Origin: Escherichia coli
Lineage (GTDB): Bacteria; Pseudomonadota; Gammaproteobacteria; Enterobacterales; Enterobacteriaceae
NCBI GenBank assembly: GCA_902499925.1
Contig: GCA_902499925.1_4130.1
Direction: 5' to 3' (one strand)
Length of the DNA: 64,000 nt
Shown: one piece after another, positions 29,651 to 44,178 of the stretch
Layout: every line of letters begins with the position of its first letter
How positions within the stretch are numbered: the stretch's first letter is position 1
The notes under the pieces: model-generated
Databases searched by the model: none
Seen by the model: only the letters and a program-made list of their open reading frames with translations
Told to the model about the DNA's origin: nothing
Program-made: the position numbers and the translations under genes

Positions 29651-29840
29651 AACATTTTATTAGTAATACCCCTTTATCGAAGTCGCTAAGGTTACCCGCC
29701 CTTTAGCCCCCTACGCATTTTGCCATAGTCCAATCCCTTTTTATTCATAAAAGTCAAGGGATTACCTATGCATTTTTTTAACGCTGAAATTTAAAAATGC
29801 CTTGACTTTTTTATGATTCAGTACTAAATCCTTTTACGCA

Positions 29841-30050
29841 TTAATCCTTCGTTACGCTTACGATTATCTGTGTATCCCCATAGTCCTGCCATACTTCCAC
29901 GCCAGCCGCCGCCCTGGTTAGTCGTGCTGTCATCTGCTTAATGGTCTTAGGCTTTAGTGGAACCTGTTGCAGTACTGTACGCATAGCACTATCGACGTTA
30001 TCATGTACGCCTGCAATAGTGCCTAGAACGTTGTATACTGTATAGATCAT
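29841..30050 (-). CDS. Hypothetical protein
   Basis: 69-aa ORF; AGGAG upstream; composition shifts to higher G+C here. Confidence 0.6.
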   Translation of the reverse strand: MIYTVYNVLGTIAGVHDNVDSAMRTVLQQVPLKPKTIKQMTARLTRAAAGVEVWQDYGDTQIIVSVTKD

Positions 30051-30118
30051 GTGTATGTACTCCTGATATAGTTAAGGCCGCTAGAGAGCGGCCTATGATG
30101 TTTGATGATGTGTAACGC

Positions 30119-30520
30119 TTACAACCCTAAGATAGTACGTGCTTCGTTGCGTTCCGTCCACAACTGCATGATGTGAGCAAGTAAGTCCTTGCTAATGTAT
30201 CCGGTGTTCATAGCTTCACGGATAGATACATCATAAGCACCGAAGCCAGTGCGAACGATACGCACATCATTCAGGTTAGTGTTATAGATACCGCCGAGAT
30301 CAACGGCTTCGAATACTGCATCAACAGAATATTCATTGTTGCCATCGTTGAAGTTTTCCAGTGCAATAGTATTGGATACCGCCCAACGTTTGCAGTTTCC
30401 AATGATGCGGCACTGTTCCGGTTGGATAGTGCCATTACTTACAGCGTACTCCAGTGCATCTTTACCAAAAGTCCGAGCCAGTACTAAAACGTCAGCGAAG
30501 GAAGTGATTGAGAAGGTCAT
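30119..30520 (-). CDS. Hypothetical protein
   Basis: Start set at ATG 7 nt after TAAGGAG; track N-terminal extension is the promoter/hairpin read through. Confidence 0.7.
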   Translation of the reverse strand: MTFSITSFADVLVLARTFGKDALEYAVSNGTIQPEQCRIIGNCKRWAVSNTIALENFNDGNNEYSVDAVFEAVDLGGIYNTNLNDVRIVRTGFGAYDVSIREAMNTGYISKDLLAHIMQLWTERNEARTILGL

Positions 30521-30540
30521 GATAAAACTCCTTAATTTAG

Positions 30541-30610
30541 GAGGGAGAACCATTTCCCCCTCTCTATGTAAAACATTATACATGAATCTAAGTACTATGC
30601 AAGTACTTTT
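30541..30610 (-). promoter_or_regulatory. Promoter (TTGCAT-N16-TATAAT) plus 5' leader palindrome
   Basis: Minus-strand reading: AAAAAGTACTTGCATAGTACTTAGATTCATGTATAAT then GGGGGAAATGGTTCTCCC then TAAGGAG. Confidence 0.55.
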
Positions 30611-30942
30611 TACATTTTGATACCTGGATTCAGGTAGCGGTGAGATCCATATTCTGGATCGGTTTCGGCCCAGTACTGTAAATCTATAGTACCTTTAGCG
30701 TTAATCTTGTCTACCAGCTTATTCATCTTAGCGTATACTACATCAGCATCGATGCGTTTAAAGCCAGTGGCTTTAGTGAAGTAGTAGTGATTTGCTTCAC
30801 TATCATTAAGGATGTACCGAGCACCGTTTGCCGTTTGTGCAATAATGATTGAGTATTCTACGTTACGGTCGAGGCCGTCAATGAATACAGAGGAAACATT
30901 AGTACGGATGAAAGCTTTAACGATAGCGATTGAAGTAGTCAT
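30610..30942 (-). CDS. Hypothetical protein
   Basis: 110-aa ORF; upstream TTGACA-N17-GATAAT and AGGAG. Confidence 0.7.
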   Translation of the reverse strand: MTTSIAIVKAFIRTNVSSVFIDGLDRNVEYSIIIAQTANGARYILNDSEANHYYFTKATGFKRIDADVVYAKMNKLVDKINAKGTIDLQYWAETDPEYGSHRYLNPGIKM

Positions 30943-31094
30943 TTTGAATCTCCTAACTTTGTGGGCCGTCGCACCGTTGCCGCCCTACGAGATACATTAT
31001 CGCAGTACTGATATACTTTGTCAATACTTTTTTATTAATAGTTTCCACTCCACCAGCAGATAGTTACTCACCGTTATTAACTATATATTTTGGG

Positions 31095-31180
31095 TACACC
31101 TATGCACCCTGTGGGCTAGTTTTTGTCTATGCGTATATAATAGCAAAGGGACTGACCGGAGTCAATCCCTTTTTTTATTC
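31095..31180. repeat. Copy A of ~90-bp intergenic repeat (GCACCCTGTGGGC motif + AAAGGGACTGACCGGAGTCAATCCCTTTTTT hairpin)
   Basis: Near-identical copies at ~33350, ~36615 and ~40624. Confidence 0.6.
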
Positions 31181-31187
31181 TTTTTTG

Positions 31188-31388
31188 TTAGATGATTCTC
31201 CAATCATCAACGATCATGGTAAGATACCGAACCAGTGATCCGAGTGATTCGTGTTCTCGATAGTCTGCCGCTCCACCAGCGGTACAAGTACAGCCGATTA
31301 AGCCGTTTTGTAGTTCCTGGATCTTTACGTCGATCTGGTTGGCTTTAGCTTCTTTCAGTACTTCAACCAGGGCGATAGCGATAGACAT
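31188..31388 (-). CDS. Hypothetical protein
   Basis: 66-aa ORF with own promoter and leader hairpin. Confidence 0.65.
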   Translation of the reverse strand: MSIAIALVEVLKEAKANQIDVKIQELQNGLIGCTCTAGGAADYREHESLGSLVRYLTMIVDDWRII

Positions 31389-31410
31389 AATGTTTTACTC
31401 CAAACTATTG

Positions 31411-31472
31411 GCGGGAGAACTATTCCCCCGCTCTATGTAAAACATTATACATTACTGGTTAGTACTGTCAAA
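31411..31472 (-). promoter_or_regulatory. Promoter (TTGACA-N16-TATAAT) plus leader palindrome GGCGGGAGAACTATTCCCCCGC
   Basis: Read on minus strand immediately upstream of gene start 31388. Confidence 0.55.
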
Positions 31473-31478
31473 TAGTTT

Positions 31479-31736
31479 TTATGAAATATCTTCGATGTAG
31501 TCGGCCCATTTCATTTTTTCAGTACTGTCAATGGCGACCGGATTATTTGGATCAAACCATTCACCATCACCGCAATACATACCCACGGCTACGGTTTTAT
31601 AGCCATCCTGGGCCGCACTCCACGACATTGCACGATAGATATGGCCTTTAACTGGTTGCAGTACTGGTAACGTTTTATGGTCTTCTACGTAGGCCATAGC
31701 TTGAGGATTTACCCGATATTGTGTGAACTGATCCAT
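31479..31736 (-). CDS. Hypothetical protein
   Basis: 85-aa ORF. Confidence 0.65.
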   Translation of the reverse strand: MDQFTQYRVNPQAMAYVEDHKTLPVLQPVKGHIYRAMSWSAAQDGYKTVAVGMYCGDGEWFDPNNPVAIDSTEKMKWADYIEDIS

Positions 31737-31812
31737 TATGTTTCCCCTTGTAGTTAGTAAAGTTATTACATCAGTACTATCAAGCTATGTCAATAGTACT
31801 GAAATAAAACTT

Positions 31813-32037
31813 TTAGATTAGATTATTGAGGCCGTCAATGGTAGACTCACTTTCTTCTTTCTCCCATTGTCGGTAGTACTTCCATGCTTCATGATAGGTG
31901 GCGATTAGTTCATCTTTTTGATCCTGGTTACATGCCAGTACTGAATCACGGTGAGCGGTGTTATAGATAGAATCGAATGATTTCTTCTCTTCTGCCAGGT
32001 TAGCTACTTCCCGCATCAGTTCATCAAAGTTAGCCAT
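31813..32037 (-). CDS. Hypothetical protein
   Basis: 74-aa ORF; leader palindrome GGGGGAGGATATCTCCCCC upstream. Confidence 0.65.
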   Translation of the reverse strand: MANFDELMREVANLAEEKKSFDSIYNTAHRDSVLACNQDQKDELIATYHEAWKYYRQWEKEESESTIDGLNNLI

Positions 32038-32104
32038 TTTATTACTCCTTTTAGTGGGGGAGGATATCTCCCCCTATGCAAAACATTATACGCTTTATTC
32101 AGTA

Positions 32105-32368
32105 CTATGCAAGTACTTTTTTCATATAAAGATTATATTCTACACCGCCGTAACCTTCTACGATGATATGTTTTGCGTTATCACGTTTGCATATAGTAAA
32201 GGCATCGTTGACGTGTTTTGCATTTTCCAGGGCAACATCGCCGATAGCGGCACATACTGAACTAATAACGATATTCCGCAAAGTACTGGTATCATTAGCG
32301 GTCATAGTAGTTTGCAGTACTACGTTGTCGTATACGTGTGCATTGATAGTGATTTCGATAGTGTTCAT
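32105..32368 (-). CDS. Hypothetical protein
   Basis: Start set at MNTIEIT preceded by AGGAG; track extension MFYIERGKWF... is the translated promoter/hairpin. Confidence 0.7.
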   Translation of the reverse strand: MNTIEITINAHVYDNVVLQTTMTANDTSTLRNIVISSVCAAIGDVALENAKHVNDAFTICKRDNAKHIIVEGYGGVEYNLYMKKVLA

Positions 32369-32455
32369 GGTGTATCTCCTGGACTTGAGGGGAAACCATT
32401 TCCCCCTCTCGATATAAAACATTATACGTTAATCTAACTACAATGCAAGTACTTT

Positions 32456-32647
32456 TTAAATTTTATTTCCGATATAGTCCGGTCTATTCTTTTCGGTCAT
32501 ACGCTTTGCTAATGATTGCATATGGCTTATTGCGTTTAATGTGTCTTCCTCCAGGGATGAATCAACATAATCAGGATCATTCTTCACCTTGCAATGATTA
32601 TGATATCGTAGTACTGCCAGTACTTTTTTAACTTCTTCAACTGTCAT
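32456..32647 (-). CDS. Hypothetical protein
   Basis: 63-aa ORF; ATGA overlap with upstream gene. Confidence 0.6.
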   Translation of the reverse strand: MTVEEVKKVLAVLRYHNHCKVKNDPDYVDSSLEEDTLNAISHMQSLAKRMTEKNRPDYIGNKI

Positions 32648-32916
32648 AATAAGTATTCCACTTCGTTAGCTTTCAGGTTAGTATCAATCATCAGTGGATT
32701 TTTGTAGTTCACAAAACGAGTAGTTTTCTCGATAGCGAATCCCATATAATCCAGCTTACTAACAGTACATTCATTCTTAAAAACTTCTTTCGCTGCATCG
32801 ATGGCTGATTGCATGGATAACCGCCCATCTAAGTTAATATTTCCAAATGATCCACCAGCAGAAGTAGGATTACCGTTCATATCTTTAATGATCATAGTAG
32901 CGGAGTAGCTGGACAT
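32644..32916 (-). CDS. Hypothetical protein
   Basis: 90-aa ORF. Confidence 0.65.
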   Translation of the reverse strand: MSSYSATMIIKDMNGNPTSAGGSFGNINLDGRLSMQSAIDAAKEVFKNECTVSKLDYMGFAIEKTTRFVNYKNPLMIDTNLKANEVEYLL

Positions 32917-32937
32917 AATTTTGTTTCCTTTTAGTAT

Positions 32938-32997
32938 CGGGGAGAACTATTCTCCCCTTGATGTAAACTATTATACAGTACTAATATACTTTGTCAA
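32938..32997 (-). promoter_or_regulatory. Promoter (TTGACA-N16-TATAAT) plus leader palindrome GGGGAGAA-cta-TTCTCCCC
   Basis: Hexamers and perfect 8-bp inverted repeat read directly upstream of gene start 32916. Confidence 0.6.
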
Positions 32998-33000
32998 TAC

Positions 33001-33222
33001 TTAATTACGTTTAAAATGATATGTGCCTTTATCATCCTGTACGCCCCATACTGATTTACCATCAACACCAGTGAAACCGGATTGTAATTCAATATGGAAA
33101 CCATTATTATCAACTACAAAAACTTTTTTATTTTCATCCCGATAACATTGATATTCTGAATCAACATTAAAGGCCGCATCATTCAGAAGATTGGAAGCGT
33201 AAATGCAAGTCATTGTAGTCAT
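33001..33222 (-). CDS. Hypothetical protein
   Basis: Start set at MTTMTCIY after AAGGAA. Confidence 0.65.
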   Translation of the reverse strand: MTTMTCIYASNLLNDAAFNVDSEYQCYRDENKKVFVVDNNGFHIELQSGFTGVDGKSVWGVQDDKGTYHFKRN

Positions 33223-33349
33223 GATTTTATTCCTTAATATACCAGGGAGAACCATTTCCCCCTCTCGATATAAAACATTATACTTGATTCTAAGTACAAT
33301 GCAAGTACTTTTTTAAAAATAGTTTTCAGTACTGAATACTTATATAATA

Positions 33350-33438
33350 TATACACTTCCGCACCCTATGGGTCAGTGAGTTATCTCTCAATGAATATAT
33401 AATAGCAAAGGGACTGACCGGAGTCAATCCCTTTTTTA
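33350..33438. repeat. Copy B of ~90-bp intergenic repeat
   Basis: GCACCCTATGGGTCAGTGAG...TATAATAGCAAAGGGACTGACCGGAGTCAATCCCTTTTTT. Confidence 0.6.
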
Positions 33439-33445
33439 ATCTTTT

Positions 33446-34030
33446 TTATCGTGTTACCTTACTTGCTTCTACATCACGCTTTTTATAGTACTGATTCCAG
33501 ATATTGCGGGTTAAACCGTAATCAAGTACTTTAATAAGTCCATTACGATCCTGGCCGATATTCTGTTTTCTGATATCTCTTATCGTTAGTGTTGATAATG
33601 TATCATCAACGTGTTGTAGTGCATCAGCAAAGCGGTGCTGGCGTTCGATTGCATTACGTTTAATATTGTACTTTAATTCGTTGCACGCGTTAACGTGCTT
33701 CACACTGCCTTTACTTGCAGTACTCAACCGATCCATAACGATAAACATATTATCAGGATCGCATAAATGCATATGCACCTTTGCAAAGTACTGTTTCAAC
33801 TGAGGGCGGTCATAGTCTAAAAAATTCCATACCTTACATTCAGTTTCATTTTGTTCTACACCCGCATCACAATTCGCGACCTTAATCACTAACCGATCAT
33901 TTAAAGCGAAAACTATACGGGAAGAACCAGCACCGATGATCTCCAGGCCAGCTAACCGACAAGCTGAAAGGATCTCTTTGTTGGTTTCCATTTCTGACAG
34001 TGTACGGATGAATTTAGTATAATTACGCAT
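33446..34030 (-). CDS. Putative Ser/Thr protein kinase-like protein
   Basis: Gly-rich loop 'GAGSSRIVF', 'VIKVAN', catalytic-loop-like 'RDIRKQNIG' and DFG-like 'LDYGL'; start at MRNYTKF after GGAG. Confidence 0.6.
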   Translation of the reverse strand: MRNYTKFIRTLSEMETNKEILSACRLAGLEIIGAGSSRIVFALNDRLVIKVANCDAGVEQNETECKVWNFLDYDRPQLKQYFAKVHMHLCDPDNMFIVMDRLSTASKGSVKHVNACNELKYNIKRNAIERQHRFADALQHVDDTLSTLTIRDIRKQNIGQDRNGLIKVLDYGLTRNIWNQYYKKRDVEASKVTR

Positions 34031-34061
34031 TGTTTTATCTCCTTGAGTTAATGAAACTATA

Positions 34062-34304
34062 TTACAGTACTTTACTATCAATGGCAACTACTTTTTTAAC
34101 ATTAACGGCGTGGATCACTTCCTTCGTGTTTTTAGTACTGAATACTTTCGCCGCACCATTCACGACCGTGATACGATAGCGACCATTAACATCAACCATA
34201 TTAATAAAGTCCGGCGTGCTGAATGGTGTTGTTTTACATTTCAGTACTGTTAACAGTTCCACCAGCGATGTAGTTTCTTTGATACGTTTTTCTAAAGTAA
34301 TCAT
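34062..34304 (-). CDS. Hypothetical protein
   Basis: Start at MITLEKRIKE; track ORF begins at a TTG inside the upstream leader. Confidence 0.6.
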   Translation of the reverse strand: MITLEKRIKETTSLVELLTVLKCKTTPFSTPDFINMVDVNGRYRITVVNGAAKVFSTKNTKEVIHAVNVKKVVAIDSKVL

Positions 34305-34361
34305 TTTGTTTCCCCCGTGTTGGTATGTACATATAGTACTAAAACATTTGAGTACTGTCAA

Positions 34362-34580
34362 TTAGATAATATTATATTTCTTAAAATAAAATGCGTCCTG
34401 TGTTGGTTGATACTCGATACCGTTACCGTTATTGACTTCAACTAATAAACCTTTGTCAATAAGTTTTTTAATAGTACGATACCCTTGTTGAAAATTGGTA
34501 AAATGTGAATCATTACGAAAGGTATAACCGTGCTTAACTGCTTCATCAATAGTTTTCTTTTCGATTTTAGATAATTTCAT
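34362..34580 (-). CDS. Hypothetical protein
   Basis: Start at MKLSKIEKK; upstream leader duplicated from the previous gene. Confidence 0.6.
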   Translation of the reverse strand: MKLSKIEKKTIDEAVKHGYTFRNDSHFTNFQQGYRTIKKLIDKGLLVEVNNGNGIEYQPTQDAFYFKKYNII

Positions 34581-34633
34581 TTTGTTTCTCCCGTGTTGGT
34601 ATATGTACATAGTACTAAAACAATTGAGTACTG

Positions 34634-34888
34634 TCAACGTGATATTAGTTTTATTTTCTTATTATATTGTTGGTGTTCATATAGGTTTATCTTTCCTGTG
34701 TTCTCTATTACTATTCTGTTGTTAGTGTCTACATCGATTACACGCAGTTTTCCGTTGCTTAACTTCCTTGGTAATAGGTTACCATTAATAAACTCATTAG
34801 CAAGCTGTACGGCCTTTGTGATGATTCTCTGAGGTGCTTTATAGTGTACCCGCAAGATATTATCTTTATATAGTTGAACCTTAATCAT
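34634..34888 (-). CDS. Hypothetical protein
   Basis: 84-aa ORF directly after a terminator hairpin. Confidence 0.65.
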   Translation of the reverse strand: MIKVQLYKDNILRVHYKAPQRIITKAVQLANEFINGNLLPRKLSNGKLRVIDVDTNNRIVIENTGKINLYEHQQYNKKIKLISR

Positions 34889-34902
34889 TTTAGTTTATCC
34901 TA

Positions 34903-34928
34903 TAAAAAAGGCGGGAACTGATCCCGCC
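34903..34928 (-). terminator. Rho-independent terminator
   Basis: GGCGGGATCAGTTCCCGCC followed by TTTTTT on minus strand. Confidence 0.6.
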
Positions 34929-34950
34929 GTGTTGTTAGTACTGCAAGTTA

Positions 34951-35346
34951 TTAGATAACCTGGCGGCGTTTACTGTATACTGTTACACGATTACCCTTAC
35001 GGTCGTGTCGGATCTCTTTCTGGTTGCGAATCAGTTCACTTGGACGCTTAAGGTTTGCCAGGTGATCCGCGTGAGTCCAAGCGGTATGGTTTACCTGTAC
35101 TTTGATATCAGAACCAGCGATAAACTCATCTTGTGCGTTAAGTACTGCCGCCAGATCTTCCGCTCGTTTTAGTTCTGCTGCTGTTAGTACTGGCTCAGGT
35201 GAATTCACAATATCAGAGATCTCTTTGAACTGTACGGCCCAACGTTGGCCTTTCGGTGCATCTTTGCCCATGTCTTTAAATGCTGCTCCTTCCTCGCGTG
35301 CAACAATACGGGCAGCTTCACGGGTAGCGTAGAATTTAGTAATCAT
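34951..35346 (-). CDS. Hypothetical protein (paralog of 47602..47865)
   Basis: Shares 'YFATREAARI...FKDMG' and 'DRKGNRVTVY' with 47602..47865; start at MITKFYATRE after AGGA. Confidence 0.65.
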   Translation of the reverse strand: MITKFYATREAARIVAREEGAAFKDMGKDAPKGQRWAVQFKEISDIVNSPEPVLTAAELKRAEDLAAVLNAQDEFIAGSDIKVQVNHTAWTHADHLANLKRPSELIRNQKEIRHDRKGNRVTVYSKRRQVI

Positions 35347-35441
35347 GGTATACATCCTATTAGTTAAGTTAGTACTACAAGTTAGAGTCTATTATAAAGT
35401 ACTATCTGGGCAATGTCAAATAGTACTTTAAATGGATTCTA

Positions 35442-35765
35442 TTACATGTCTTTCTTACGTTTTACATCGTAGTAGCGAACTGTTATTTCTTTGTTAATCT
35501 CTTTTTCGATGTGGTGAATAACTTTTTCTTTCGGGTTGAAACCTATAACGGTTTCTTTAATGATCTCCAAACCAGTGTATTCGCCTTGTGTGCCGTAACC
35601 GTATGTAAAGGTTTCATGTCCCAGGTCTTCCCAGCGGTCGCCAATTAACGCAGACACGTAGCAAGAGTGGTAAGTATTGCCGTGTGAATCAGTCCACCGA
35701 TTAACTTTAATGTCAAAGGAGGTTACAATTTTCAATTCTACTTTCTGGGCAAGGATCATAGCCAT
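35442..35765 (-). CDS. Hypothetical protein (paralog of 42290..42613)
   Basis: Shares 'RWTDSHGNTYHSC.VS' and 'FTYGYG' with 42290..42613. Confidence 0.7.
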   Translation of the reverse strand: MAMILAQKVELKIVTSFDIKVNRWTDSHGNTYHSCYVSALIGDRWEDLGHETFTYGYGTQGEYTGLEIIKETVIGFNPKEKVIHHIEKEINKEITVRYYDVKRKKDM

Positions 35766-35852
35766 TTTTATTTCTCTCTTTTAGTTAGGAGGGGAACCAT
35801 TCCCCTCACTTGATGTAAACTATTATACAGTACTAAGATACTTTGTCAATAC

Positions 35853-36035
35853 TTATTTTTTGGAAAGTTTACGCATTAATTCTACGCTTTCTTGTGAACG
35901 TTTTGCTACCTGGCAAGCTGCATGGACAGTAAACATTTTTGTATAGTCTGACGCTTTGCCACCGAACCGAGCGGCACGTTCACGGGCACTTGGAACTAAT
36001 ACTATTTCTTTCTTGCAGATAGTGCACTTAGCCAT
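35853..36035 (-). CDS. Small Cys-rich (zinc-ribbon-like) protein
   Basis: MAKCTICKK...HAACQ; start set 45 nt inside track ORF. Confidence 0.55.
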   Translation of the reverse strand: MAKCTICKKEIVLVPSARERAARFGGKASDYTKMFTVHAACQVAKRSQESVELMRKLSKK

Positions 36036-36123
36036 TTTTATTTCTCTCTCTTTGTTAGGAGGGGAACCGTTTCCCCTCACTCGATGTAAACTATTATACA
36101 GTACTAAGATACTTTGTCAATAC

Positions 36124-36399
36124 TTAATTATTGTAAATGTCGTGAATAGTGATAAAGTTTTTACGACCGTAAACCTGCAAATCAATATCAATGTAGTGCT
36201 TATCTAGTACATCCTCGACGCTTAACGCGGTGTCGTGGATATCTTCGTAGAATTGAGGATCTACAATCTTGCTTAAGTCATCCGGCGTTAACTTATCGTT
36301 AAGCCATTGAACCGCCTGGATATCTGCTTCACGTTTCCAGTCTTCCAGGTTAGTAGTCAGTACTTGTTCGATTTCGTTAGCTGTCAGTAGAATCCGCAT
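36124..36399 (-). CDS. Hypothetical protein
   Basis: 91-aa ORF downstream of tandem promoters and structured leader. Confidence 0.65.
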   Translation of the reverse strand: MRILLTANEIEQVLTTNLEDWKREADIQAVQWLNDKLTPDDLSKIVDPQFYEDIHDTALSVEDVLDKHYIDIDLQVYGRKNFITIHDIYNN

Positions 36400-36423
36400 T
36401 TTTATGTTTCCTTATCAGTGGTT

Positions 36424-36600
36424 GATGTAAGTATTATACTCTTTTACTTTCTATTGTCAAACTATTTTATCAGGGGAGGTTTTCTTATGTCTTACTCCTG
36501 GACTACTTAACGGGGTTACTTGTTTCGTTCCCCGTCCTGATGTAAAACATTATACTTGATTCTAAGTACAATGCAAGTACTTTTTTAAAAATAGTTTTCA
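36424..36600 (-). promoter_or_regulatory. Tandem promoters flanking a ~70-nt conserved structured leader element
   Basis: Two TTGACA/TTGCAT-N16-17-TATAAT promoters; between them CAGGACGGGGAACGAAAC...CCTCCCCTG, repeated at ~46925-46998. Confidence 0.5.
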
Positions 36601-36614
36601 GTACTAGCCACCAG

Positions 36615-36706
36615 CATATAATAGATACATTTATGCACCCTGTGGGCTGATTTGTTTCTATGCGTATATAATAGCAAAGGGACTGACCGGAGTCAATCCC
36701 TTTTTC
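36615..36706. repeat. Copy C of ~90-bp intergenic repeat
   Basis: TATAATAGATACATTTATGCACCCTGTGGGCT...AAAGGGACTGACCGGAGTCAATCCCTTTTT. Confidence 0.6.
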
Positions 36707-36714
36707 AATTATTT

Positions 36715-36864
36715 TTAAACTTCTTTCGGGTTGCGATAGGTGATAGCGTTCGGGTACATTTGTTTAATGTTATTCCATGCCTGGTTAACATTGTAACCAC
36801 TTGAGCGAATCAGTTGGTTACTACCGACACCTTGAAACACTACTTCGAATAAGAATTCTTTCAT
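36715..36864 (-). CDS. Small hypothetical protein (~49 aa), not in ORF track
   Basis: ATG overlaps stop of upstream gene (ATGA); translation MKEFLFEVVFQGVGSNQLIRSSGYNVNQAWNN... Confidence 0.45.
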   Translation of the reverse strand: MKEFLFEVVFQGVGSNQLIRSSGYNVNQAWNNIKQMYPNAITYRNPKEV

Positions 36865-37034
36865 GCTTTCACCTCGCGATCTGCTTTACCTTTACGCCAG
36901 GACATTACTAATTGTTCGCGTTGCCATAAGTCGAGTGATACAAAAAGTTTTGCGGTATCACTTTTAGGATACTCGCCATTAGTACCTAACCGATAAAACA
37001 GATCTTTCAGTACTGATAATTCTACTTGGATCAT
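36861..37034 (-). CDS. Hypothetical small protein
   Basis: Start at MIQVELSVLKD; track extension is the translated leader hairpin. Confidence 0.55.
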   Translation of the reverse strand: MIQVELSVLKDLFYRLGTNGEYPKSDTAKLFVSLDLWQREQLVMSWRKGKADREVKA

Positions 37035-37120
37035 TATACTTTCCTCTTTGTTGGGAGGGGAACTATTCCCCTCTCGATATAAAACATTATACACTTTATT
37101 CAGTACTGTGCAAGTACTTT

Positions 37121-37333
37121 TTAATCTTTCAGCCAATGATCCTGAATGAATTTTTCGCCGGAACCTTGCTGCATAGATTGTAACAGACGTTCACGATGAG
37201 CGGCGGCGAATTGCTCAGTACTATGCGTTACACCTGGTTGATATCTGGATTCACCATTGGGGGCGATGTATTGTACATCCCACGGTTTTTCGTTAGTATC
37301 AGACCATTTACGAACGATTAGTTGACCTTGCAT
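37121..37333 (-). CDS. Hypothetical protein
   Basis: 70-aa ORF with promoter and GGGGAGAATCATTTCTCCCC leader. Confidence 0.65.
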   Translation of the reverse strand: MQGQLIVRKWSDTNEKPWDVQYIAPNGESRYQPGVTHSTEQFAAAHRERLLQSMQQGSGEKFIQDHWLKD

Positions 37334-37416
37334 TTTTCTTTCCTCTTAGTGGGGAGAATCATTTCTCCCCTTCATGTAAACTATTATACAGTACTAGATT
37401 ATCTTGTCAATAGTTT

Positions 37417-37740
37417 TTATTCACCTTGTTTGAATTTAGTTTTCTCCATTGATTCCATGATTGCAACCAATACACCGTGGATCTCGCTTAACGCGGAATC
37501 ACTAAAAGCATTAATGAATAGTCGATCATTCTCGCGAATATTTTTAATGTACTTTTCAGCAGTAGTTGCGAATTCATTCAACGGTAGATCAAATGCTTTA
37601 TCCCATGATGGATGGCGTAATTGTAACAGTACTGGATTATCACGATCACCAGGGGAAAACGTACCAGTGATGAAACATACGCCCGGAATACTTTCGAACT
37701 GGCAACGGACTTCCTTTGTGATAGTAGTATGAATGTACAT
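37417..37740 (-). CDS. Hypothetical protein
   Basis: 107-aa ORF; GAGGA SD; likely co-transcribed with 37768..37956. Confidence 0.65.
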   Translation of the reverse strand: MYIHTTITKEVRCQFESIPGVCFITGTFSPGDRDNPVLLQLRHPSWDKAFDLPLNEFATTAEKYIKNIRENDRLFINAFSDSALSEIHGVLVAIMESMEKTKFKQGE

Positions 37741-37767
37741 TTATTGTTATCCTCTATTAAATTAATA

Positions 37768-37956
37768 TTACAGTTTATGAATCAATTCTTTATCTAAGCG
37801 ATAGCGTACATTATTAATGGTAACAGCATTATTTTTAATGCTACGCTGTACAGGTCCACCAGCAATAACAAATGTTGCTTTATTACCCCGAACAATGATA
37901 GCACTTCCAGGATTACCGAAATCATCTTGTACTAAAATACTTGATAAGTTTTCCAT
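37768..37956 (-). CDS. Hypothetical protein
   Basis: 62-aa ORF; promoter TTGCAT...TATAGT and leader hairpin upstream. Confidence 0.6.
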   Translation of the reverse strand: MENLSSILVQDDFGNPGSAIIVRGNKATFVIAGGPVQRSIKNNAVTINNVRYRLDKELIHKL

Positions 37957-38034
37957 TTTTATTTCCTCTTAGTAGGGGAAGATGTTTCCCCTTGATGTAA
38001 GTACTATAACAGTACTGAAAACTAAATGCAAGTA

Positions 38035-38391
38035 CTATGATAAAATCATGATAGGATATTCACTATCGATCAGTACCTCGAATCCGAAACCTTCGTACCA
38101 TTCTTTAAGATTAAAGGCGTTATCTTCTCCCGTATCGCATTCTAAGATGATACAATCTGAATCATCAGCGGCATCGATAAAGGCATTCATTAATTCGTTA
38201 CCTTCACCATTGCCCCGACTATCAGGATCAACATAAAGAGAATCAATAAACGCTACACGGTCATAATCAAGATCCGGTGCAATGATTCCACGTTTAACAA
38301 ACCAGTACTGCAATTGTGCTACTTTGCCCTGTACTTGATAGCCAGTGATCTCGCCATTGTCAGTAGTACGCGTGATATGTTGTATTCCCAT
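38035..38391 (-). CDS. Putative GNAT-family N-acetyltransferase-like protein
   Basis: 'IDSLYVDPDSRGNGEGNELMNAF' resembles acetyl-CoA-binding motif A; TTGACA-N16-TATAAT upstream. Confidence 0.55.
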   Translation of the reverse strand: MGIQHITRTTDNGEITGYQVQGKVAQLQYWFVKRGIIAPDLDYDRVAFIDSLYVDPDSRGNGEGNELMNAFIDAADDSDCIILECDTGEDNAFNLKEWYEGFGFEVLIDSEYPIMILS

Positions 38392-38455
38392 GATTACTAT
38401 CCTCAGTTAAGATATAAAACATTATACACTATCTTTCAGTACTGTCAATTACTTT

Positions 38456-38713
38456 TTATCTCATAGATCTATGCCAACAATTACGCGGGGGACGTTTAAA
38501 AGTACTATCATGATCCTCCTGGCAAGTAATGCAGTACATGCACCCTATAACGGCCTGGCGTCGATTCTCAGGGATTTTATCGCCGCAGTCGAGGCAATGT
38601 ACTAGTGATTCTCTTTGTGCGTTAATTTGCTTTCTAGCGTGGTTGACGGCGGCCTGAATCACTGCGTTGATCTCGTCTTGTTCGGCCCCGTCTTTCGCGT
38701 ATCCTACTGCCAT
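38456..38713 (-). CDS. Putative DksA/TraR-type C4 zinc-finger protein
   Basis: 'HCLDCGDKIPENRRQAVIGCMYCITCQ' gives CxxC-N17-CxxC spacing. Confidence 0.55.
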   Translation of the reverse strand: MAVGYAKDGAEQDEINAVIQAAVNHARKQINAQRESLVHCLDCGDKIPENRRQAVIGCMYCITCQEDHDSTFKRPPRNCWHRSMR

Positions 38714-39042
38714 TATTTTAACCTCATTATAAAAATACTATAGTACTGTAATGCTACAATAATACTACTAGTGTTTATCTTATTCAAACCATATGATACT
38801 ACATATCCATCAGCATTACCACGGATAGTAACGCCTTTGTACTGTCTATATAAATTCAACTGCGTATATTGCCTTTGATCAAGAATTGATCAGAATTATA
38901 CGCCTTATGCTAAATTAATCCAGTACTTTTTTGATCATTTATTGATCGATATTATATAGTTACATTTGTGCACCCTATGGGTTAGTGACGTTCTCGTCTT
39001 GATGTAAGTATTATGCCAGTACTGGAGGATATTGTCAATAGA

Positions 39043-39240
39043 TTATTTTAATTTTTTTCTGTCATTGATTAATGCTTTCAGTACTATACTAATAACTTGC
39101 AATGATTCATCAATGACAATGAAATTATTCTCTTTCATTAGATGATAGTTACCATTGATTGTATATTCTAACGAGTACTGTTTACGTTTAATTTTTGATA
39201 ATGTTTCTATTTGTTTTTGTACTGATTTCATGCTAATCAT
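39043..39240 (-). CDS. Hypothetical small protein
   Basis: ORF in AT-rich spacer; start taken at first ATG (track begins at TTG). Confidence 0.35.
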   Translation of the reverse strand: MISMKSVQKQIETLSKIKRKQYSLEYTINGNYHLMKENNFIVIDESLQVISIVLKALINDRKKLK

Positions 39241-39313
39241 TGTCAAACGTCCTGTAACGCATTCTAACGAGATAAACGGTTTAGTACTGGCATTGTATAG
39301 GGTAAATGATTAA

Positions 39314-39339
39314 AGCCCACCAGCGTTAACCAGTGGGCT
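39314..39339 (-). terminator. Rho-independent terminator
   Basis: AGCCCAC-N12-GTGGGCT hairpin followed by T-rich tract on minus strand. Confidence 0.55.
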
Positions 39340-39345
39340 ATAATC

Positions 39346-39489
39346 TTACATCTTGCGGATAATCTTAACAGTATCTTTCACCGATTTACCGTTTTGCTGA
39401 CATTGCTCGATCATCGCGTATTGTTCTGCGGTCAGATCCTCGCCAGTTTTTGCCAGTACTGCGTCGATGAATGAATCCAGTGCGATCAT
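39346..39489 (-). CDS. Small hypothetical protein (~47 aa), not in ORF track
   Basis: Own TTGACA-N16-TATAAT promoter; translation MIALDSFIDAVLAKTGEDLTAEQYAMIEQCQQNGK...; terminator downstream. Confidence 0.45.
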   Translation of the reverse strand: MIALDSFIDAVLAKTGEDLTAEQYAMIEQCQQNGKSVKDTVKIIRKM

Positions 39490-39588
39490 TTTGTTTCTCT
39501 CTTAGGTTAAGTTAACTACTGTTTATAAAACTTATTATACAGTACTATCAAACGTTGTCAATATCTTTAATAGTACTGGTAATATATT

Positions 39589-39768
39589 TTAGCGGTAATC
39601 GTCGTATGCTTTATTCACCTGGCGAATGTAACTTTCAAAGGCTTCGTCTACCGTTTCATACTCCCGAACATAATCACCATAGGAAACTACATACATACCT
39701 TTTTGATCTTCAAACGTCATGATGATAGAATCCAGGCCGATGATTTCAGTTTTTGCGATGATAGCCAT
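39589..39768 (-). CDS. Hypothetical small protein
   Basis: Start at MAIIAKTEII after AAGGA; upstream TTGACA-N17-CATAAT. Confidence 0.55.
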   Translation of the reverse strand: MAIIAKTEIIGLDSIIMTFEDQKGMYVVSYGDYVREYETVDEAFESYIRQVNKAYDDYR

Positions 39769-39850
39769 TTTTAATTCCTTAGTAGTGTAGTTGATAAAAG
39801 TTATTATGCCAGTACTATCAATCAGTGTCAATAGTACTGTGATAATATTT

Positions 39851-40063
39851 TTAGTTAATGATAGTCAGTGTAAAATTGTAATCCCCTGCCTGGTATAGTA
39901 CTTTGTCGCCGAACGTTCCAACACGTTTCATATTGCAATAGATACCCATAACACTTTTTACATCTTTGATATTCCGAACGCCAGTAATATCCTTGTTTAA
40001 ATGATCGTGATCAGAAAATAAAACTTGTTTTGCATTTTTCAGTACAGTGCAGATATTAGCCAT
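39851..40063 (-). CDS. Hypothetical protein
   Basis: 70-aa ORF; promoter and GGGGAGAATCATTTCTCCCC leader. Confidence 0.6.
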   Translation of the reverse strand: MANICTVLKNAKQVLFSDHDHLNKDITGVRNIKDVKSVMGIYCNMKRVGTFGDKVLYQAGDYNFTLTIIN

Positions 40064-40157
40064 TTTGTTTTCTCTCTGTTAGTGGGGAGAATCATTTCTC
40101 CCCTTGATGTAAACTATTATACAGTACTATAATCTATTGTCAAACTATTTTTTTATA

Positions 40158-40499
40158 TTATTCGAAATCTTCTGGACCGGACTGATAATCATCTTCACCG
40201 TATGCACTTTCTAACCGCTCACCAGTGTGATCATCAGTTAGTGAGTCATCCTCATAGTTCACGTCTACGCCAGTGATGTAAAACTGGCTATCGTCTGGAT
40301 CATTGAAATTAATTTTTTGGATGTTTACAATAACTGTATTGATACCCAGGACACCGCCATCAGCCGTTACAAAGTACTGATAGTTTTCGCAACCGCCTGA
40401 ATTGAAACCGTAATTAATTTCGGCCCGACCATCATTTAAACGCAGTGCCTGGGCGATGATTTCATTTTCAAAGTTAGATTGAGCAATTGAGATAGTCAT
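40158..40499 (-). CDS. Hypothetical acidic protein
   Basis: 113-aa ORF with promoter TTGCAA-N16-TATAAT and GGGGAAACGGTTTCCCC leader. Confidence 0.65.
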   Translation of the reverse strand: MTISIAQSNFENEIIAQALRLNDGRAEINYGFNSGGCENYQYFVTADGGVLGINTVIVNIQKINFNDPDDSQFYITGVDVNYEDDSLTDDHTGERLESAYGEDDYQSGPEDFE

Positions 40500-40623
40500 G
40501 ATTTGTTTCCTTATTACCAGGGGAAACCGTTTCCCCTTTCGATGTAAAACATTATACGCTTATTGAGATAGTTTGCAAGTACTTTCTACAAATACTTTTA
40601 AAATAGTTTTCAGTACTCAAACA

Positions 40624-40727
40624 TTATATAATAGATACACTTATGCACCCTGTGGGCTAGTGAGCTATCTCTCAATGAATATATAATAGCAAAATGGCTG
40701 ACCGGAGTCAACCACTTTTTTCATTTA
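40624..40727. repeat. Copy D of ~90-bp intergenic repeat
   Basis: TATAATAGATACACTTATGCACCCTGTGGGCTAGTGAGC...AAAATGGCTGACCGGAGTCAACCACTTTTTT. Confidence 0.6.
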
Positions 40728-40864
40728 TTTTTAGCTTTTAGAATCGCCGCCTTTCGCGTCATGCCTTGCTTGATGTATTCCTGTACTTTCGCTTTACGTG
40801 CATTCGCTTTATTTGCTTTCGTAAACGCCGAACAACTTTTATAATTTAAGCCTGTTGGATTCAT
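40721..40864 (-). CDS. Small basic hypothetical protein (~47 aa), not in ORF track
   Basis: Start directly after stop of upstream ORF (TAAATG); Lys-rich; followed by terminator hairpin. Confidence 0.4.
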   Translation of the reverse strand: MNPTGLNYKSCSAFTKANKANARKAKVQEYIKQGMTRKAAILKAKNK

Positions 40865-40954
40865 TTAAATCACCATAAAGAATAGATAGGTTACTAACAA
40901 TGCCGCGATCAATGCACCGACCAGGGCCGAACTATAGTAAGCTAATGATTTCAT
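40865..40954 (-). CDS. Small hydrophobic peptide (~29 aa), not in ORF track
   Basis: ATGA overlap with upstream gene; MKSLAYYSSALVGALIAALLVTYLFFMVI is a single predicted TM helix. Confidence 0.4.
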   Translation of the reverse strand: MKSLAYYSSALVGALIAALLVTYLFFMVI

Positions 40955-41103
40955 TTTTTAGCCTGAAAGTAATGTTTAATTTGAGCGGCGGTCAGTGCAC
41001 AATTACGCAGGAAGTTTTCTGTATAACTGCGGCGAGTACTGAAAGAGAATTGACCTTTGCCGTTACCGATAGTAACATCAAACCGAGCGTTGTATTGTTT
41101 CAT
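40951..41103 (-). CDS. Hypothetical small protein
   Basis: Start at MKQYNARF after GGAG; track extension is promoter/hairpin. Confidence 0.5.
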   Translation of the reverse strand: MKQYNARFDVTIGNGKGQFSFSTRRSYTENFLRNCALTAAQIKHYFQAKK

Positions 41104-41184
41104 TTTGTTTCTCCTGTTATTGGGGAGAATCATTTCTCCCCTTCATGTAAAACATTATACAGTACTAAAAACTAATTGCAAGTA

Positions 41185-41331
41185 CTATTTTTTAGATTTA
41201 CGCAAACTTTCTACCATCTCAGGAGTAAGGCCAGGCGGGTAGAAAACCACTTCATCAACGAAACGTAAAGGGAATACCCCATCTAAGGTTGAACGTGCTT
41301 TCTTGTTAGTACTCTTTTTTGATGCTTTCAT
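41185..41331 (-). CDS. Small basic hypothetical protein (~48 aa), not in ORF track
   Basis: Own promoter (TTGCAA-N16-TATAAT), GGGGAGAA leader and TAAGGAA SD; MKASKKSTNKKARSTLDGVFPLRF... Confidence 0.5.
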   Translation of the reverse strand: MKASKKSTNKKARSTLDGVFPLRFVDEVVFYPPGLTPEMVESLRKSKK

Positions 41332-41400
41332 TTCATATTCCTTAATTAGTGGGGAGAATCATTTCTCCCCTTCATGTAAAACATTATACGCGTTTAAAAA

Positions 41401-41610
41401 CTAATTGCAAGTACTATTTGAAAGTAAATGCTCATACGCTGCATTAACTACGTTTTCAATAACCGACTGTACAGAAAGATCCCCCACGGCCTGGCTATAG
41501 TAGAAATCGCTTACAGTGGTGTCATCGTATGCAAATACTTTACCAGGTACTGCATCAATCACATACATATTAACCTTTAAGATGTCGATCTTATCCTGTA
41601 CAGTAAGCAT
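41401..41610 (-). CDS. Hypothetical protein
   Basis: 69-aa ORF. Confidence 0.6.
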   Translation of the reverse strand: MLTVQDKIDILKVNMYVIDAVPGKVFAYDDTTVSDFYYSQAVGDLSVQSVIENVVNAAYEHLLSNSTCN

Positions 41611-41615
41611 ATTAA

Positions 41616-41888
41616 TTAACCTTTTAAGTACTGGCTTAAGTAGTCTTGTTGATCTTCGGTGATTGCAGCCATCTTCCCTAGTACTGGATTGATGATATAA
41701 TCCCCTGTAACGTCCTGTAACGCATTCTCAGGCGGTTTAACGGCTGGGGTAGCCATAGCCATTGCCTGGACTTGTTCGACGCTGTAACGCTCATAAAGGC
41801 GGCATTCTTCCGGTGTTAACATAGCATCAGTACGCTTCATCGGTTTAATGATGCTTTCGATCTCATTCAGTACTTGATTAACGTTCAT
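41616..41888 (-). CDS. Hypothetical protein
   Basis: 90-aa ORF. Confidence 0.65.
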   Translation of the reverse strand: MNVNQVLNEIESIIKPMKRTDAMLTPEECRLYERYSVEQVQAMAMATPAVKPPENALQDVTGDYIINPVLGKMAAITEDQQDYLSQYLKG

Positions 41889-41939
41889 GGTATAATCCCC
41901 AATATAAGCGGCCTGAATCGACCGCTAACGATGTTTTGA

Positions 41940-42209
41940 TTAATAGGTGTATGGTTGACGCTCAAACAATGATTGCACGTTGTACGCCCCGCTTATGGGC
42001 TTCGCTGGTAAATCAATTTTATATTGTTCACGCTTAAAGATAATAAAACGGCAATTGTTTTTAACATCAAAATTGATTGAACGTTCCAGGAGTTTTCCAT
42101 CGTGCACAAATACAAGATAACCGCTTGCTACTTGTTTTGTAGTACTGGTTGCAACCATAGACCGACGAACATGTGTACCTGCATCGATTAAAGTACTGAT
42201 ATTTTTCAT
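41940..42209 (-). CDS. Hypothetical protein
   Basis: 89-aa ORF. Confidence 0.65.
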   Translation of the reverse strand: MKNISTLIDAGTHVRRSMVATSTTKQVASGYLVFVHDGKLLERSINFDVKNNCRFIIFKREQYKIDLPAKPISGAYNVQSLFERQPYTY

Positions 42210-42289
42210 TATACGATCCTCTTAAGTTAATTTAATTTCTTTCCCCTATGCAGACACTATATCAAAGTATCTGCATAAAGTAAAGCTAA

Positions 42290-42613
42290 TTAAAGATCTT
42301 TTTTGCGTTTAACATTCTGTACAGTACAATGCAACGGGATATTAAGATCATTGCACAAACGAGTAAGGGAGGTTTCATCAGTATTAAGCCCGTCTACTGA
42401 TTCCTTTAAGAGAGATAACGCCGTTTGTTGATATGCATCTTCATAGCCATAAGTAAATGATTCAACCGCCAGATCATTCAAACCGTTATCCAGTTCAACG
42501 CTTACATGACAAGAATGATAAGTATTGCCATATGAATCAGTCCAACGTTTACCGTCAACATTGATTGCACGGATTGCAGCCAGGGAAACGGTGTTAATGA
42601 TAGTTTTAGCCAT
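42290..42613 (-). CDS. Hypothetical protein (paralog of 35442..35765)
   Basis: Shares 'RWTDSYGNTYHSCHVS' and 'FTYGYE'. Confidence 0.7.
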   Translation of the reverse strand: MAKTIINTVSLAAIRAINVDGKRWTDSYGNTYHSCHVSVELDNGLNDLAVESFTYGYEDAYQQTALSLLKESVDGLNTDETSLTRLCNDLNIPLHCTVQNVKRKKDL

Positions 42614-42702
42614 TTTTGTATTCCTTAAATTAATATGTTGTCTTGATAAAATCTATTATGCCAGTACTATCAAACTATGTCAATAGTACTGTGATAATAT
42701 TT

Positions 42703-42846
42703 TTACTTACTTTTTTCTTTCTTTATTACTTCCACCTGGTCGGCCCATTCTTTACCCCATACTTGTAAATTATAATGGTACTGGCAAAGAGCAACGCCCC
42801 GCTTTAAACCCGTAATAGATTTCTGACCACATTGACAAGTTTTCAT
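42703..42846 (-). CDS. Small Cys-containing hypothetical protein (~47 aa), not in ORF track
   Basis: Own promoter and GGGGAGAACCATTTCTCCCC leader; MKTCQCGQKSITGLKRGVALCQYHYNLQVW... Confidence 0.45.
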   Translation of the reverse strand: MKTCQCGQKSITGLKRGVALCQYHYNLQVWGKEWADQVEVIKKEKSK

Positions 42847-42932
42847 TTTAGTTTCCTTGTAGTGGGGAGAACCATTTCTCCCCTTGATGTAATGTATTAT
42901 ACTTTATTCGATTTACTTTGCAAGTACTTTTT

Positions 42933-43160
42933 TTAATTTAATTCATCAAGGCAAAGGATACGCTCAACGCCCAAATCAGTTAAACTAATCGACGGCACTT
43001 GATAGGTTTCAATGTATGCTACACTTGCCCACTGACCGAACTCATTAACGGCCCAGGTATTCATTGCATTTTGCAATTCCGCACCTTCCTTGTTGGTAAT
43101 GACTGCAACTACTTGTTCGTTGCCAGTAGTACCAGATACGCGAGTAATGATAATAGCCAT
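42933..43160 (-). CDS. Hypothetical protein
   Basis: Start at MAIIITRVSG; track extension is promoter/hairpin. Confidence 0.65.
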   Translation of the reverse strand: MAIIITRVSGTTGNEQVVAVITNKEGAELQNAMNTWAVNEFGQWASVAYIETYQVPSISLTDLGVERILCLDELN

Positions 43161-43397
43161 TGTTTTGATTCCTTTGATTTGGAAGGAGAACCGTTTCCCC
43201 CTCTCGATGTAAAACATTATACGCTAATCTCTTAATCGTGCAAGTACTTTTTATTACTTTTTGCAAAATACTTTAAACGCTCTCAATCGCATTACAACGA
43301 CCTTAACGCCACCAGCTAGGGCAATTGCATCAGATAATCAGTTTAATGCGTTAGAATCGTTTCTAGGCGGTGCTGGTGGCCTGGTAAACGATAAACA

Positions 43398-43425
43398 CAA
43401 AAAAGCCCACCATTTAAGGTGGGCT
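43398..43425 (-). terminator. Rho-independent terminator
   Basis: AGCCCACC-ttaaat-GGTGGGCT followed by TTTTTT on minus strand, just 3' of gene 43447..43929. Confidence 0.65.
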
Positions 43426-43446
43426 AGTGATTCAGTACTTTAATTG

Positions 43447-43929
43447 TTATGCTTCAACTTTGCGATGAGCTTCGATCCATTCCTCGCGAGTCATACCGCT
43501 GGAGTTAATCGCATCCAGTACTACAGCAATGCAGTTACCACGCACCGGAATCAGATATTCTTCCCCGTTGTCCAGTACTACCGCTACGCGTTCCTGAATC
43601 CATTTTTTTGCTTTTACTTCTGGCTTATCTTCCCCGTACTTAACCGCCAGGGCTTTTTGTGCCATCTCTGTAACTACTTCCAGATCCAGCCCAACTACTG
43701 CCGCCTGAATACTTTCAATTGTTGCTTGCAGTTCTGCTTCACGGGCCGCTTTCGCCGCTTCAATTTCTGCCGCTTTATTTGCTTGTAGTTCTTTCGCAGT
43801 ACTGTACGCGATGTTAAAATTATTGCGTACCGCTTTCATGGTATCGTTGTCCAGTTCAGCCAGGATCTCAGCCGCGACGTTAGTTTCATTTGCTACCAGT
43901 GCTTTGATGAATGATTTTACATTAGCCAT
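43447..43929 (-). CDS. Hypothetical protein with Ala/Glu-rich predicted coiled-coil region
   Basis: Start at MANVKSFIK; central 'AKELQANKAAEIEAAKAAREAELQATIESIQAA'. Confidence 0.7.
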   Translation of the reverse strand: MANVKSFIKALVANETNVAAEILAELDNDTMKAVRNNFNIAYSTAKELQANKAAEIEAAKAAREAELQATIESIQAAVVGLDLEVVTEMAQKALAVKYGEDKPEVKAKKWIQERVAVVLDNGEEYLIPVRGNCIAVVLDAINSSGMTREEWIEAHRKVEA

Positions 43930-44134: not shown

Positions 44135-44161
44135 CAAAAAAGCCCACTGTATAAGTGGGCT
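44135..44161 (-). terminator. Rho-independent terminator
   Basis: AGCCCAC-ttataca-GTGGGCT followed by T-run on minus strand, 3' of gene 44179..44478. Confidence 0.6.
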
Positions 44162-44178
44162 AGTGATTCAGTACTAGA

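Follow-up and report, generated by a model that had tools for sequence, protein, structure and literature searches.

A minimal kinase-like protein of PHROG 4301 encoded in the terminal repeat, a putative early region, of an Asteriusvirus jumbo phage

Bud32/PRPK and RIO are small, kinase-like proteins without an activation loop that keep additional C-lobe helices and act as ATPases within KEOPS or pre-ribosomes, and ArkI is an archaeal tRNA 2'-O-kinase of 216 aa. The phage kinase T7K (T7 gp0.7) is an early, promiscuous counter-defence kinase that was recently shown to disarm many bacterial defence systems; a DP(V) motif in place of DFG is a trait of its family, and homologs with the DP motif have been reported in jumbophages G17 and Munch (PMC13645617). 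The Sharanji genome paper describes WNN14351.1, which is exactly the protein analysed here, as 'another protein kinase ... function is unknown' (PMC11895373).

The window, i.e. the whole stretch of 64,000 nucleotides that was analysed, belongs to a G17/Sharanji-like Asteriusvirus E. coli jumbo phage of about 350 kb, and the region is 95–97% identical to the Asteriusvirus phages fEgEco12, Ecwhy_1, G17, Sharanji, PBECO4 and 121Q. The initial annotation had called a 194-aa ORF at 33446-34030, and this frame is present at exactly those coordinates on the minus strand, with its ATG at 34030 and its TAA at 33448-33446. We refer to the product as the mini-kinase. The orthologs of G17, Sharanji and CRJP21 show 100% protein identity to it. 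The PBECO4 ortholog is entered in UniProt as a protein of 147 aa (L7TKF0) and is encoded in full, with 194 aa and 95.9% identity, at 136222-136803 of the genome KC295538.1; the short UniProt entry probably reflects a frameshift or a wrongly called start. All of the motifs quoted for the gene were found in the order of a kinase, namely G33-A-G-S-S-R-I-V-F41, V48-I-K50-V-A-N53, R151-D152-I-R-K-Q-N157-I-G159 and L169-D170-Y-G-L173. The features of the gene are:

33446..34030, minus strand: mini-kinase coding sequence, 194 aa plus stop, a PHROG 4301 member (ORF translation, phrog_4301 E=1e-41, AF2 pLDDT 94.9, kinase-fold matches)
34038..34042, minus strand: Shine-Dalgarno GGAGA, 7 nt 5' of the mini-kinase ATG, read directly from the sequence
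33911..33934, minus strand: Gly-rich loop codons G33-V40 (GAGSSRIV), with S36 and R38 as family hallmarks; β1-β2 strands in the model
33881..33883, minus strand: codon of K50, the ATP-anchoring Lys of β3 (VIK), found in 185/185 domains; strand 47-52 of the model
33839..33853, minus strand: Q60-N61-x-x-E64 codons at the start of helix αC, from conservation; E64 presumably forms a salt bridge with K50
33560..33577, minus strand: catalytic loop codons D152-I-R-K-Q-N157, aligned to the HRDxKxxN loop of MKK4/MKK7
33515..33523, minus strand: D170-Y-G172 codons, the DFG-equivalent Mg-binding motif, aligned to the DFG of MKK4/7
33449..33508, minus strand: C-terminal tail, residues 175-194, with one helix at 175-182 (NIWNQYYK) in the secondary structure of the model and without an activation segment or αF-αI

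Profile searches were utilized in order to evaluate the relationship of the mini-kinase to known kinases. As a single sequence it scored 17.8 bits against Pfam Pkinase (PF00069), below the gathering threshold of 31.7, and 5 of 46 diverse family members matched this model at E<=0.01. Other generic kinase models gave marginal matches only (PknB_PASTA_kin of NCBIfam, 0.05; PD-T4-6 kinase of PADLOC, 2.4e-4). Weak sequence matches to the PDB were kinases in 82 of 82 cases, aligned at the catalytic loop and DFG. The Pfam search, which the initial annotation had proposed as a check, was thus sub-threshold, yet a 14-sequence family profile returned 252 PDB matches at E<=1, nearly all of them kinases. 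The best of these were MKK4 (E=1.6e-4) and MKK7 (E=5e-4), spanning positions 29-183, with D152, N157 and D170 aligned with the HRD Asp, the Asn and the DFG Asp of both.

Structure prediction, the second proposed check, also returned a kinase fold. With the 46 diverse members as alignment, AlphaFold (AF2) gave a model with a pLDDT of 94.9 and a pTM of 0.90; a first model from the shallow 14-sequence alignment had been discarded, its C-terminal half being unreliable (pLDDT 53.8). The model contains β1-β3 with K50 in β3 (strand 47-52), a long αC helix (55-73) with E64, a hinge strand and two C-lobe helices; the catalytic loop and DYG are flanked by a β-hairpin, and a last helix (175-182) follows. 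This corresponds to the PKL fold, that is, a five-stranded N-lobe with αC and a C-lobe with catalytic and Mg-binding loops, and the β3 Lys, αC Glu, catalytic Asp and DFG-type Asp are all present. Foldseek against the PDB assigned a probability of 1.0 to MEK1, OSR1, PknB, PRPK and APH(2''), and hundreds of kinase-fold structures matched the model. As none of the structural neighbours is close, the mini-kinase is a very divergent kinase-like protein. Neither a lack of similarity to kinase profiles nor a failure to align the catalytic residues, the two outcomes named beforehand as speaking against a kinase, was observed: the profile matched at E=1.6e-4 and the residues aligned.

Conservation was counted in 185 domains from 153 homologous proteins. 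K50 and D170 are present in 185/185 domains, E64 and G172 in 183/185, R38 in 182/185 and G159 in 181/185. The catalytic D152 is found in 180 of the 185 domains and is replaced by Glu in 4 others; Q60 (180/185), N61 (179/185), G35 (178/185) and S36 (165/185) are likewise retained, and position 171 is Tyr or Phe in 162/185. The close family comprises 13 clusters, all of 191-212 aa, in which G33, G35, K50, E64, D152 and D170 are invariant. The RaK2-like subfamily to which the mini-kinase belongs retains N157. In the majority of the remaining members this position is occupied by H, S, T or Q, and the loop is one residue longer (GD.....[S/T/H][W/Y]G). The conservation of the catalytic residues argues for what would be an active enzyme rather than a pseudokinase.

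The eukaryotic-like Ser/Thr/Tyr kinases (PF00069; MKK4/MKK7, PknB) are the sequence-level matches of the mini-kinase and share with it the motif order of Gly-loop, β3 Lys, αC Glu, D-x4-N and a DFG-type motif. Compared to these kinases the mini-kinase is missing roughly 100 residues (activation segment, APE and αF-αI), and the third Gly of the Gly-loop is a near-invariant Arg in its family. Only 24 aa remain after D170 before the C-terminal end, with no activation segment (DFG...APE) and no αF-αI. In 109 single-domain family proteins the tail after the DFG Asp has a median length of 26 aa; as the short tail is a family trait, the missing activation segment and αF-αI are not a truncation artefact. 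Conservation in the family does not extend to the HRD His/Arg or to the D+2 Lys that is typical of Ser/Thr kinases, and the mini-kinase is therefore not a canonical ePK. Of the 'compact Ser/Thr kinase' that the initial annotation had read from the motifs, the kinase-like fold and the alignable, conserved catalytic residues were borne out, whereas the protein is not a typical member of that class, on account of the absent activation segment, αF-αI, HRD His/Arg and D+2 Lys and of the sub-threshold Pkinase score.

T7 gp0.7 had been named as the precedent for the gene, and as an architectural analogy, i.e. a truncated domain with collinear motifs, this stands. Both proteins are phage-encoded, T7K in the early region transcribed by host RNAP and the mini-kinase in a putative early region, and both are minimal kinase-like domains that end about 20-25 aa past the DFG-equivalent Asp. 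When the mini-kinase family was compared with a 9-sequence T7K kinase-domain profile by hhalign, 138 columns aligned collinearly and all of the motifs were in register, at a probability of 49% and an E of 1.8e-4. T7-type kinases were also the best functionally annotated viral structure matches when Foldseek was run against BFVD (TM 0.50-0.57).

Membership in the T7K family was rejected. The hhalign probability was 2.8% with a single sequence as against 49% with the 9-sequence T7K profile, and in an HMM test with a positive control the mini-kinase reached 7.9 bits compared to 88.3 bits (E 3e-29) for Sharanji gp144. No match to PHROG 2828 (T7K) was found for any of the 46 members. The mini-kinase has D170-Y-G where T7K has D-P-V, GxGSSR where T7K has GNGHFSAA in the Gly-loop, and G..QN..E where T7K has EDSGAAY in αC, and it is without the T7 shut-off domain. 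The same genome moreover encodes a true T7K homolog: Sharanji gp144 (224 aa, 'ITDP' motif; OR545507.1 66182-66856, or 26183-26857 of locus L019, outside the window) is a confident T7K-family member with an hhalign probability of 99.2%, and is likewise without the shut-off domain. No T7K-like gene is present in the window, and the T7K-type gene of Sharanji lies about 46 kb away. We infer that the T7K homologs of G17 and Munch (PMC13645617) are of the gp144 type and are not the mini-kinase gene.

The location of the gene was compared with the terminal repeats of related phages. G17 carries the mini-kinase gene twice, at 4249-4833 and 354398-354982, because it sits in a direct terminal repeat of 20,668 bp. 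In vB_Ec-M-J and Muenster, too, the ortholog lies within an annotated terminal repeat. The direct terminal repeat (DTR) of fEgEco12 is 20,993 bp long, as confirmed by restriction mapping (PMC13070987), and contains the ortholog at 16.1-16.7 kb. The features surrounding the gene in the window are:

29700..50381, minus strand: block that corresponds to the direct terminal repeat of G17, ~20.7 kb (G17 350150-370817 mapped), with small genes and 12 perfect sigma-70 promoters; putative early region
34910-34928, minus strand (34928-34910): terminator 5' of the ParE_like gene
34634..34888, minus strand: ParE_like (PF24732) gene, 84 aa, E=6.4e-11, above cutoff; 0-4 genes upstream of the mini-kinase in relatives
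34609..34637, minus strand: second copy of the promoter cassette, preceding a 72-aa gene
34333..34361, minus strand: nearest strong promoter-like site, TTGACA-17-TACTAT, in the repeated promoter+RBS cassette; probable promoter of a unit of the 80-aa gene and the mini-kinase
34062..34304, minus strand: upstream 80-aa gene, 31-nt gap to the mini-kinase with no promoter cassette between; putatively co-transcribed, no Pfam match, not conserved in divergent loci
33407..33434, minus strand: intrinsic-terminator-like hairpin with a 12 bp stem, 12 nt past the mini-kinase stop; an equivalent terminator is annotated in G17

Read 5' to 3' on the minus strand, the order is terminator (34928-34910), ParE_like gene (34888-34634), cassette (34637-34609), 72-aa gene, cassette (34361-34333), 80-aa gene, 31-nt spacer with the Shine-Dalgarno sequence, mini-kinase and terminator (33434-33407). 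Perfect TTGACA-N16-18-TATAAT sites occur 15 times in the window compared to 0.34 expected; the minus strand carries 14 of these, 12 of which fall in the DTR-equivalent block. The initial annotation had placed the gene in a block of individually promoted small genes. The block itself is confirmed by this excess, but the mini-kinase gene has no promoter cassette of its own and probably shares that of the upstream 80-aa gene. As the mini-kinase is the last gene of a short operon with sigma-70-type promoters, early expression is suggested, and we consider early timing probable. For the related phage CBB, a block of short genes with RpoD promoters was proposed by its authors to be an early host-takeover region (PMC5259590).

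The near-identical promoter+RBS cassettes (TTGACAGTACTCAA.TGTTTTAGTACTAT...GGGAGAAACAAAATG) lie at 34577-34637 and 34302-34361 (minus strand), ahead of successive small genes, and an AGTACTG spacer motif just 5' of TATAAT is common to many of the 15 perfect sigma-70 promoters. Past the mini-kinase, the terminator stem and the -35 (TTGACT) of the promoter that follows overlap (33399-33434, minus strand). Intergenic segments of roughly 190-235 bp that are 83-86% identical recur several times in the terminal repeat of G17 (e.g. L001 4021-4251 and 7218-7519). These repeated segments yield spurious repeated peptides in ORF lists, such as 'MFYIERGKWF'.

The reading that we put forward, and to which as a whole we give an even chance, is that of an early, catalytically competent minimal kinase-like phosphotransferase of low specificity that serves takeover or counter-defence. 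Its parts differ in strength. Catalytic activity is highly probable, as judged from the residue conservation. Whether the substrate is a protein is evenly balanced. A role in host takeover or anti-defence, which is argued by analogy, is conceivable at somewhat less than an even chance. Mechanistically, host sigma-70 RNA polymerase would transcribe the operon from the terminal-repeat block, with synthesis of the protein probably very early. The enzyme would combine a complete N-lobe (Gly-loop, β3 Lys50 and αC Glu64) with a stripped-down C-lobe (Asp152/Asn157 loop, Mg-binding Asp170-Tyr-Gly and a closing helix), and according to the model would do without an activation segment, P+1/APE region and αF-αI helices. 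As the usual substrate-docking elements are thereby absent, it most likely has little intrinsic specificity. The gamma-phosphate of ATP would be passed to host, and possibly phage, proteins, and the outcome may be a contribution to host takeover or counter-defence, as for the similarly truncated T7 kinase domain. Depletion of Ser/Thr/Tyr was considered as a possible trace of a promiscuous kinase; the content of these residues in early proteins was 16.9% compared to 18.9% and 25.2% in the flanks, a weak difference for which protein type and the second kinase are confounders.

Several observations count against this reading. Among these are the weak and confounded Ser/Thr/Tyr depletion, the sub-threshold Pfam score, the D+2 Lys that is not conserved and the presence of H, S or Q at position 157 in most of the wider family. 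A redundant role is furthermore not obviously needed in a phage that carries a genuine T7K-type kinase as well. Some distant relatives in RNA-repair clusters also count against it, as a hint that the substrate may not be a protein in at least one branch. The homolog in this distant clade directly adjoins genes for AAA_33/tRNA-ligase-CPD-like (Pnk-like), NUDIX, T4 RNA ligase 1 and CCA-adding enzyme proteins. The loci with such a neighbourhood (L022, L023, L024 and L027, partly L020/L021) are on contigs of 166-341 kb and also hold RNase T and HD genes.

An alternative is that the mini-kinase is active on a non-protein substrate. Candidates would be RNA or tRNA in the manner of ArkI, nucleotides or immune second messengers, and other small molecules or lipids. 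The absence of a conserved D+2 Lys and of a peptide-binding activation segment, together with the RNA-repair genes directly beside distant members, fits such a substrate. The RNA-repair context is confined, however, to that distant clade, which has a divergent catalytic loop (GD.....SYG), whereas other family members sit in capsid, baseplate or replication clusters. No RNA-repair, capsid, baseplate or replication neighbours were found at the mini-kinase gene itself. As a general clue the RNA-repair context was rejected for being specific to a clade with a different loop, and for the same reason the RNA link is a lead for the distant branch only. The sequence-level matches are moreover protein kinases. 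With regard to small-molecule kinases, no Pfam APH (PF01636) match was obtained for the mini-kinase, identity to APH(2'')/ArkI is 12-19%, and the large helical substrate-binding subdomain of APH is absent from the model. A non-protein substrate is on balance rather unlikely.

A further alternative is that the mini-kinase is an ATPase or nucleotide-dependent switch that acts with a partner protein, like Bud32/PRPK, RIO or COQ8. The lack of an activation loop is shared with Bud32 and RIO, and one family member matches Pfam ABC1 weakly, but the mini-kinase itself had no match to the RIO, Bud32 and ABC1 Pfam models at E<=10. A conserved adjacent partner, such as the Kae1/KEOPS or ribosomal context expected for Bud32 and RIO, was likewise not found. 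Only the ParE_like gene and a gene of ~115-134 aa recur as a pair upstream of the mini-kinase, at variable distance, in loci that are 40-52% identical (L013, L015 and L016), and the other flanking small genes differ among these loci; no gene stands out as an obligatory partner. In the window the 84-aa ParE_like toxin-domain gene is paired with a 134-aa gene at 34951-35355 (minus strand) that has no Pfam match. The catalytic Asp, kept in 180/185 domains, is consistent with phosphotransfer, and an ATPase or switch is improbable.

That the protein is a pseudokinase or ATP-binding scaffold without catalysis, or resembles kinases by chance, is very improbable: the Pfam score is sub-threshold and the extremely reduced C-lobe could be non-functional, but pseudokinases typically lose at least one catalytic residue, and here the Lys, Glu, catalytic Asp and Mg-binding Asp are each conserved at >=97% across very divergent homologs, with hundreds of kinase-fold structural matches and PDB profile matches that are nearly all kinases.

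The preferred reading, an early minimal phosphotransferase, concerns a protein of a large family. The mini-kinase matches the PHROG 4301 HMM over residues 3-187 (E=1e-41), an entry labelled 'unknown function' in the database, and 46 of 46 diverse homologs match it too; no Pfam family covers these 46 members. An exhaustive HMM search at E<=1e-3 identified 2072 cluster representatives, the clusters being defined at 50% identity. Of the cultured phages, with 50,697 genomes covered, only jumbo phages of >300 kb were found to carry the family, namely Asteriusvirus, RaK2/K64-1/Muenster, Munch/7t3/SE_PL, Hallingskeid, Kaldavass, EJP2, GAP32, CBB, fHe-Yen9 and Xoo-sp13, and PHROG 4301 is common in T4-related jumbo phages. 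The metagenomic members have T4-type capsid, baseplate and RNA-ligase genes as neighbours, and their contigs reach 346 kb. As called genes from metagenomes, 25 of the 153 family proteins have at least two complete tandem mini-kinase domains with intact motifs (e.g. P0021, P0023, P0027, P0030, P0032 and P0037). Five of the tandem proteins have three or more domains, with up to four copies in 923-969 aa.

Homologs of the mini-kinase are mostly named hypothetical in databases. A few carry automated kinase names ('serine/threonine-protein kinase PRP4', 'PknA' and 'protein kinase domain-containing protein'), and Munch, Muenster and SE_PL use the label 'putative protein kinase'. As these annotations and the Sharanji paper (PMC11895373) name it, the kinase-likeness of the protein is already on record. 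What is new here is the firm confirmation at the level of the fold, together with the delimitation of a large mini-kinase family that had no annotation and is recognized by a distinct signature (GxGSSR, K, G..QN..E, D-x4-N/H/S-x-G, D-[YF]-G and a tail of ~26 aa). It is also new that this family is set apart from T7K and placed in a putative early block of the terminal repeat.

T7K was recently shown to disarm many bacterial defence systems (PMC13645617), and the mini-kinases form a different large kinase family that is conserved across RaK2-like jumbo phages considered for therapy. A minimal kinase that is predicted to be catalytically intact, encoded in a putative early terminal-repeat block, is a candidate factor of host takeover or counter-defence that is directly open to testing. 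The family is also among the smallest complete kinase cores and shows how far the kinase fold can shrink. More speculatively, and with a low probability, the mini-kinases of PHROG 4301 might form a second, independent line of stripped-down phage kinases that, alongside the T7K type, provide broad counter-defence from the terminal repeat at the start of infection, or in some branches nucleic-acid or nucleotide kinases tied to tRNA repair, with the tandem forms of 2-4 domains as multi-specificity arrays. If the mini-kinase only duplicates the co-resident T7K-type kinase, the result is a routine improvement of annotation.

The family HMM found no mini-kinase paralogs in the window, although many of its ORFs are about 190 aa long. 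A junction with respect to G17 was observed at 32904-33002, where one whole G17 gene (G17_00010/00623, 135 aa) is absent from the window. The ~100-bp segment in which the junction falls occurs twice in the alignment, pointing to recombination between repeated intergenic cassettes as a route of gene gain or loss. Elsewhere in the window, about 24 ORFs of 155-215 aa are arranged in long runs at 814-20732 (minus strand) and seven ORFs of 358-440 aa at 55391-63870 (plus strand), and one equivalent in Sharanji is annotated as an RCC1-repeat protein; both runs of similar-sized ORFs look like expanded paralog families.
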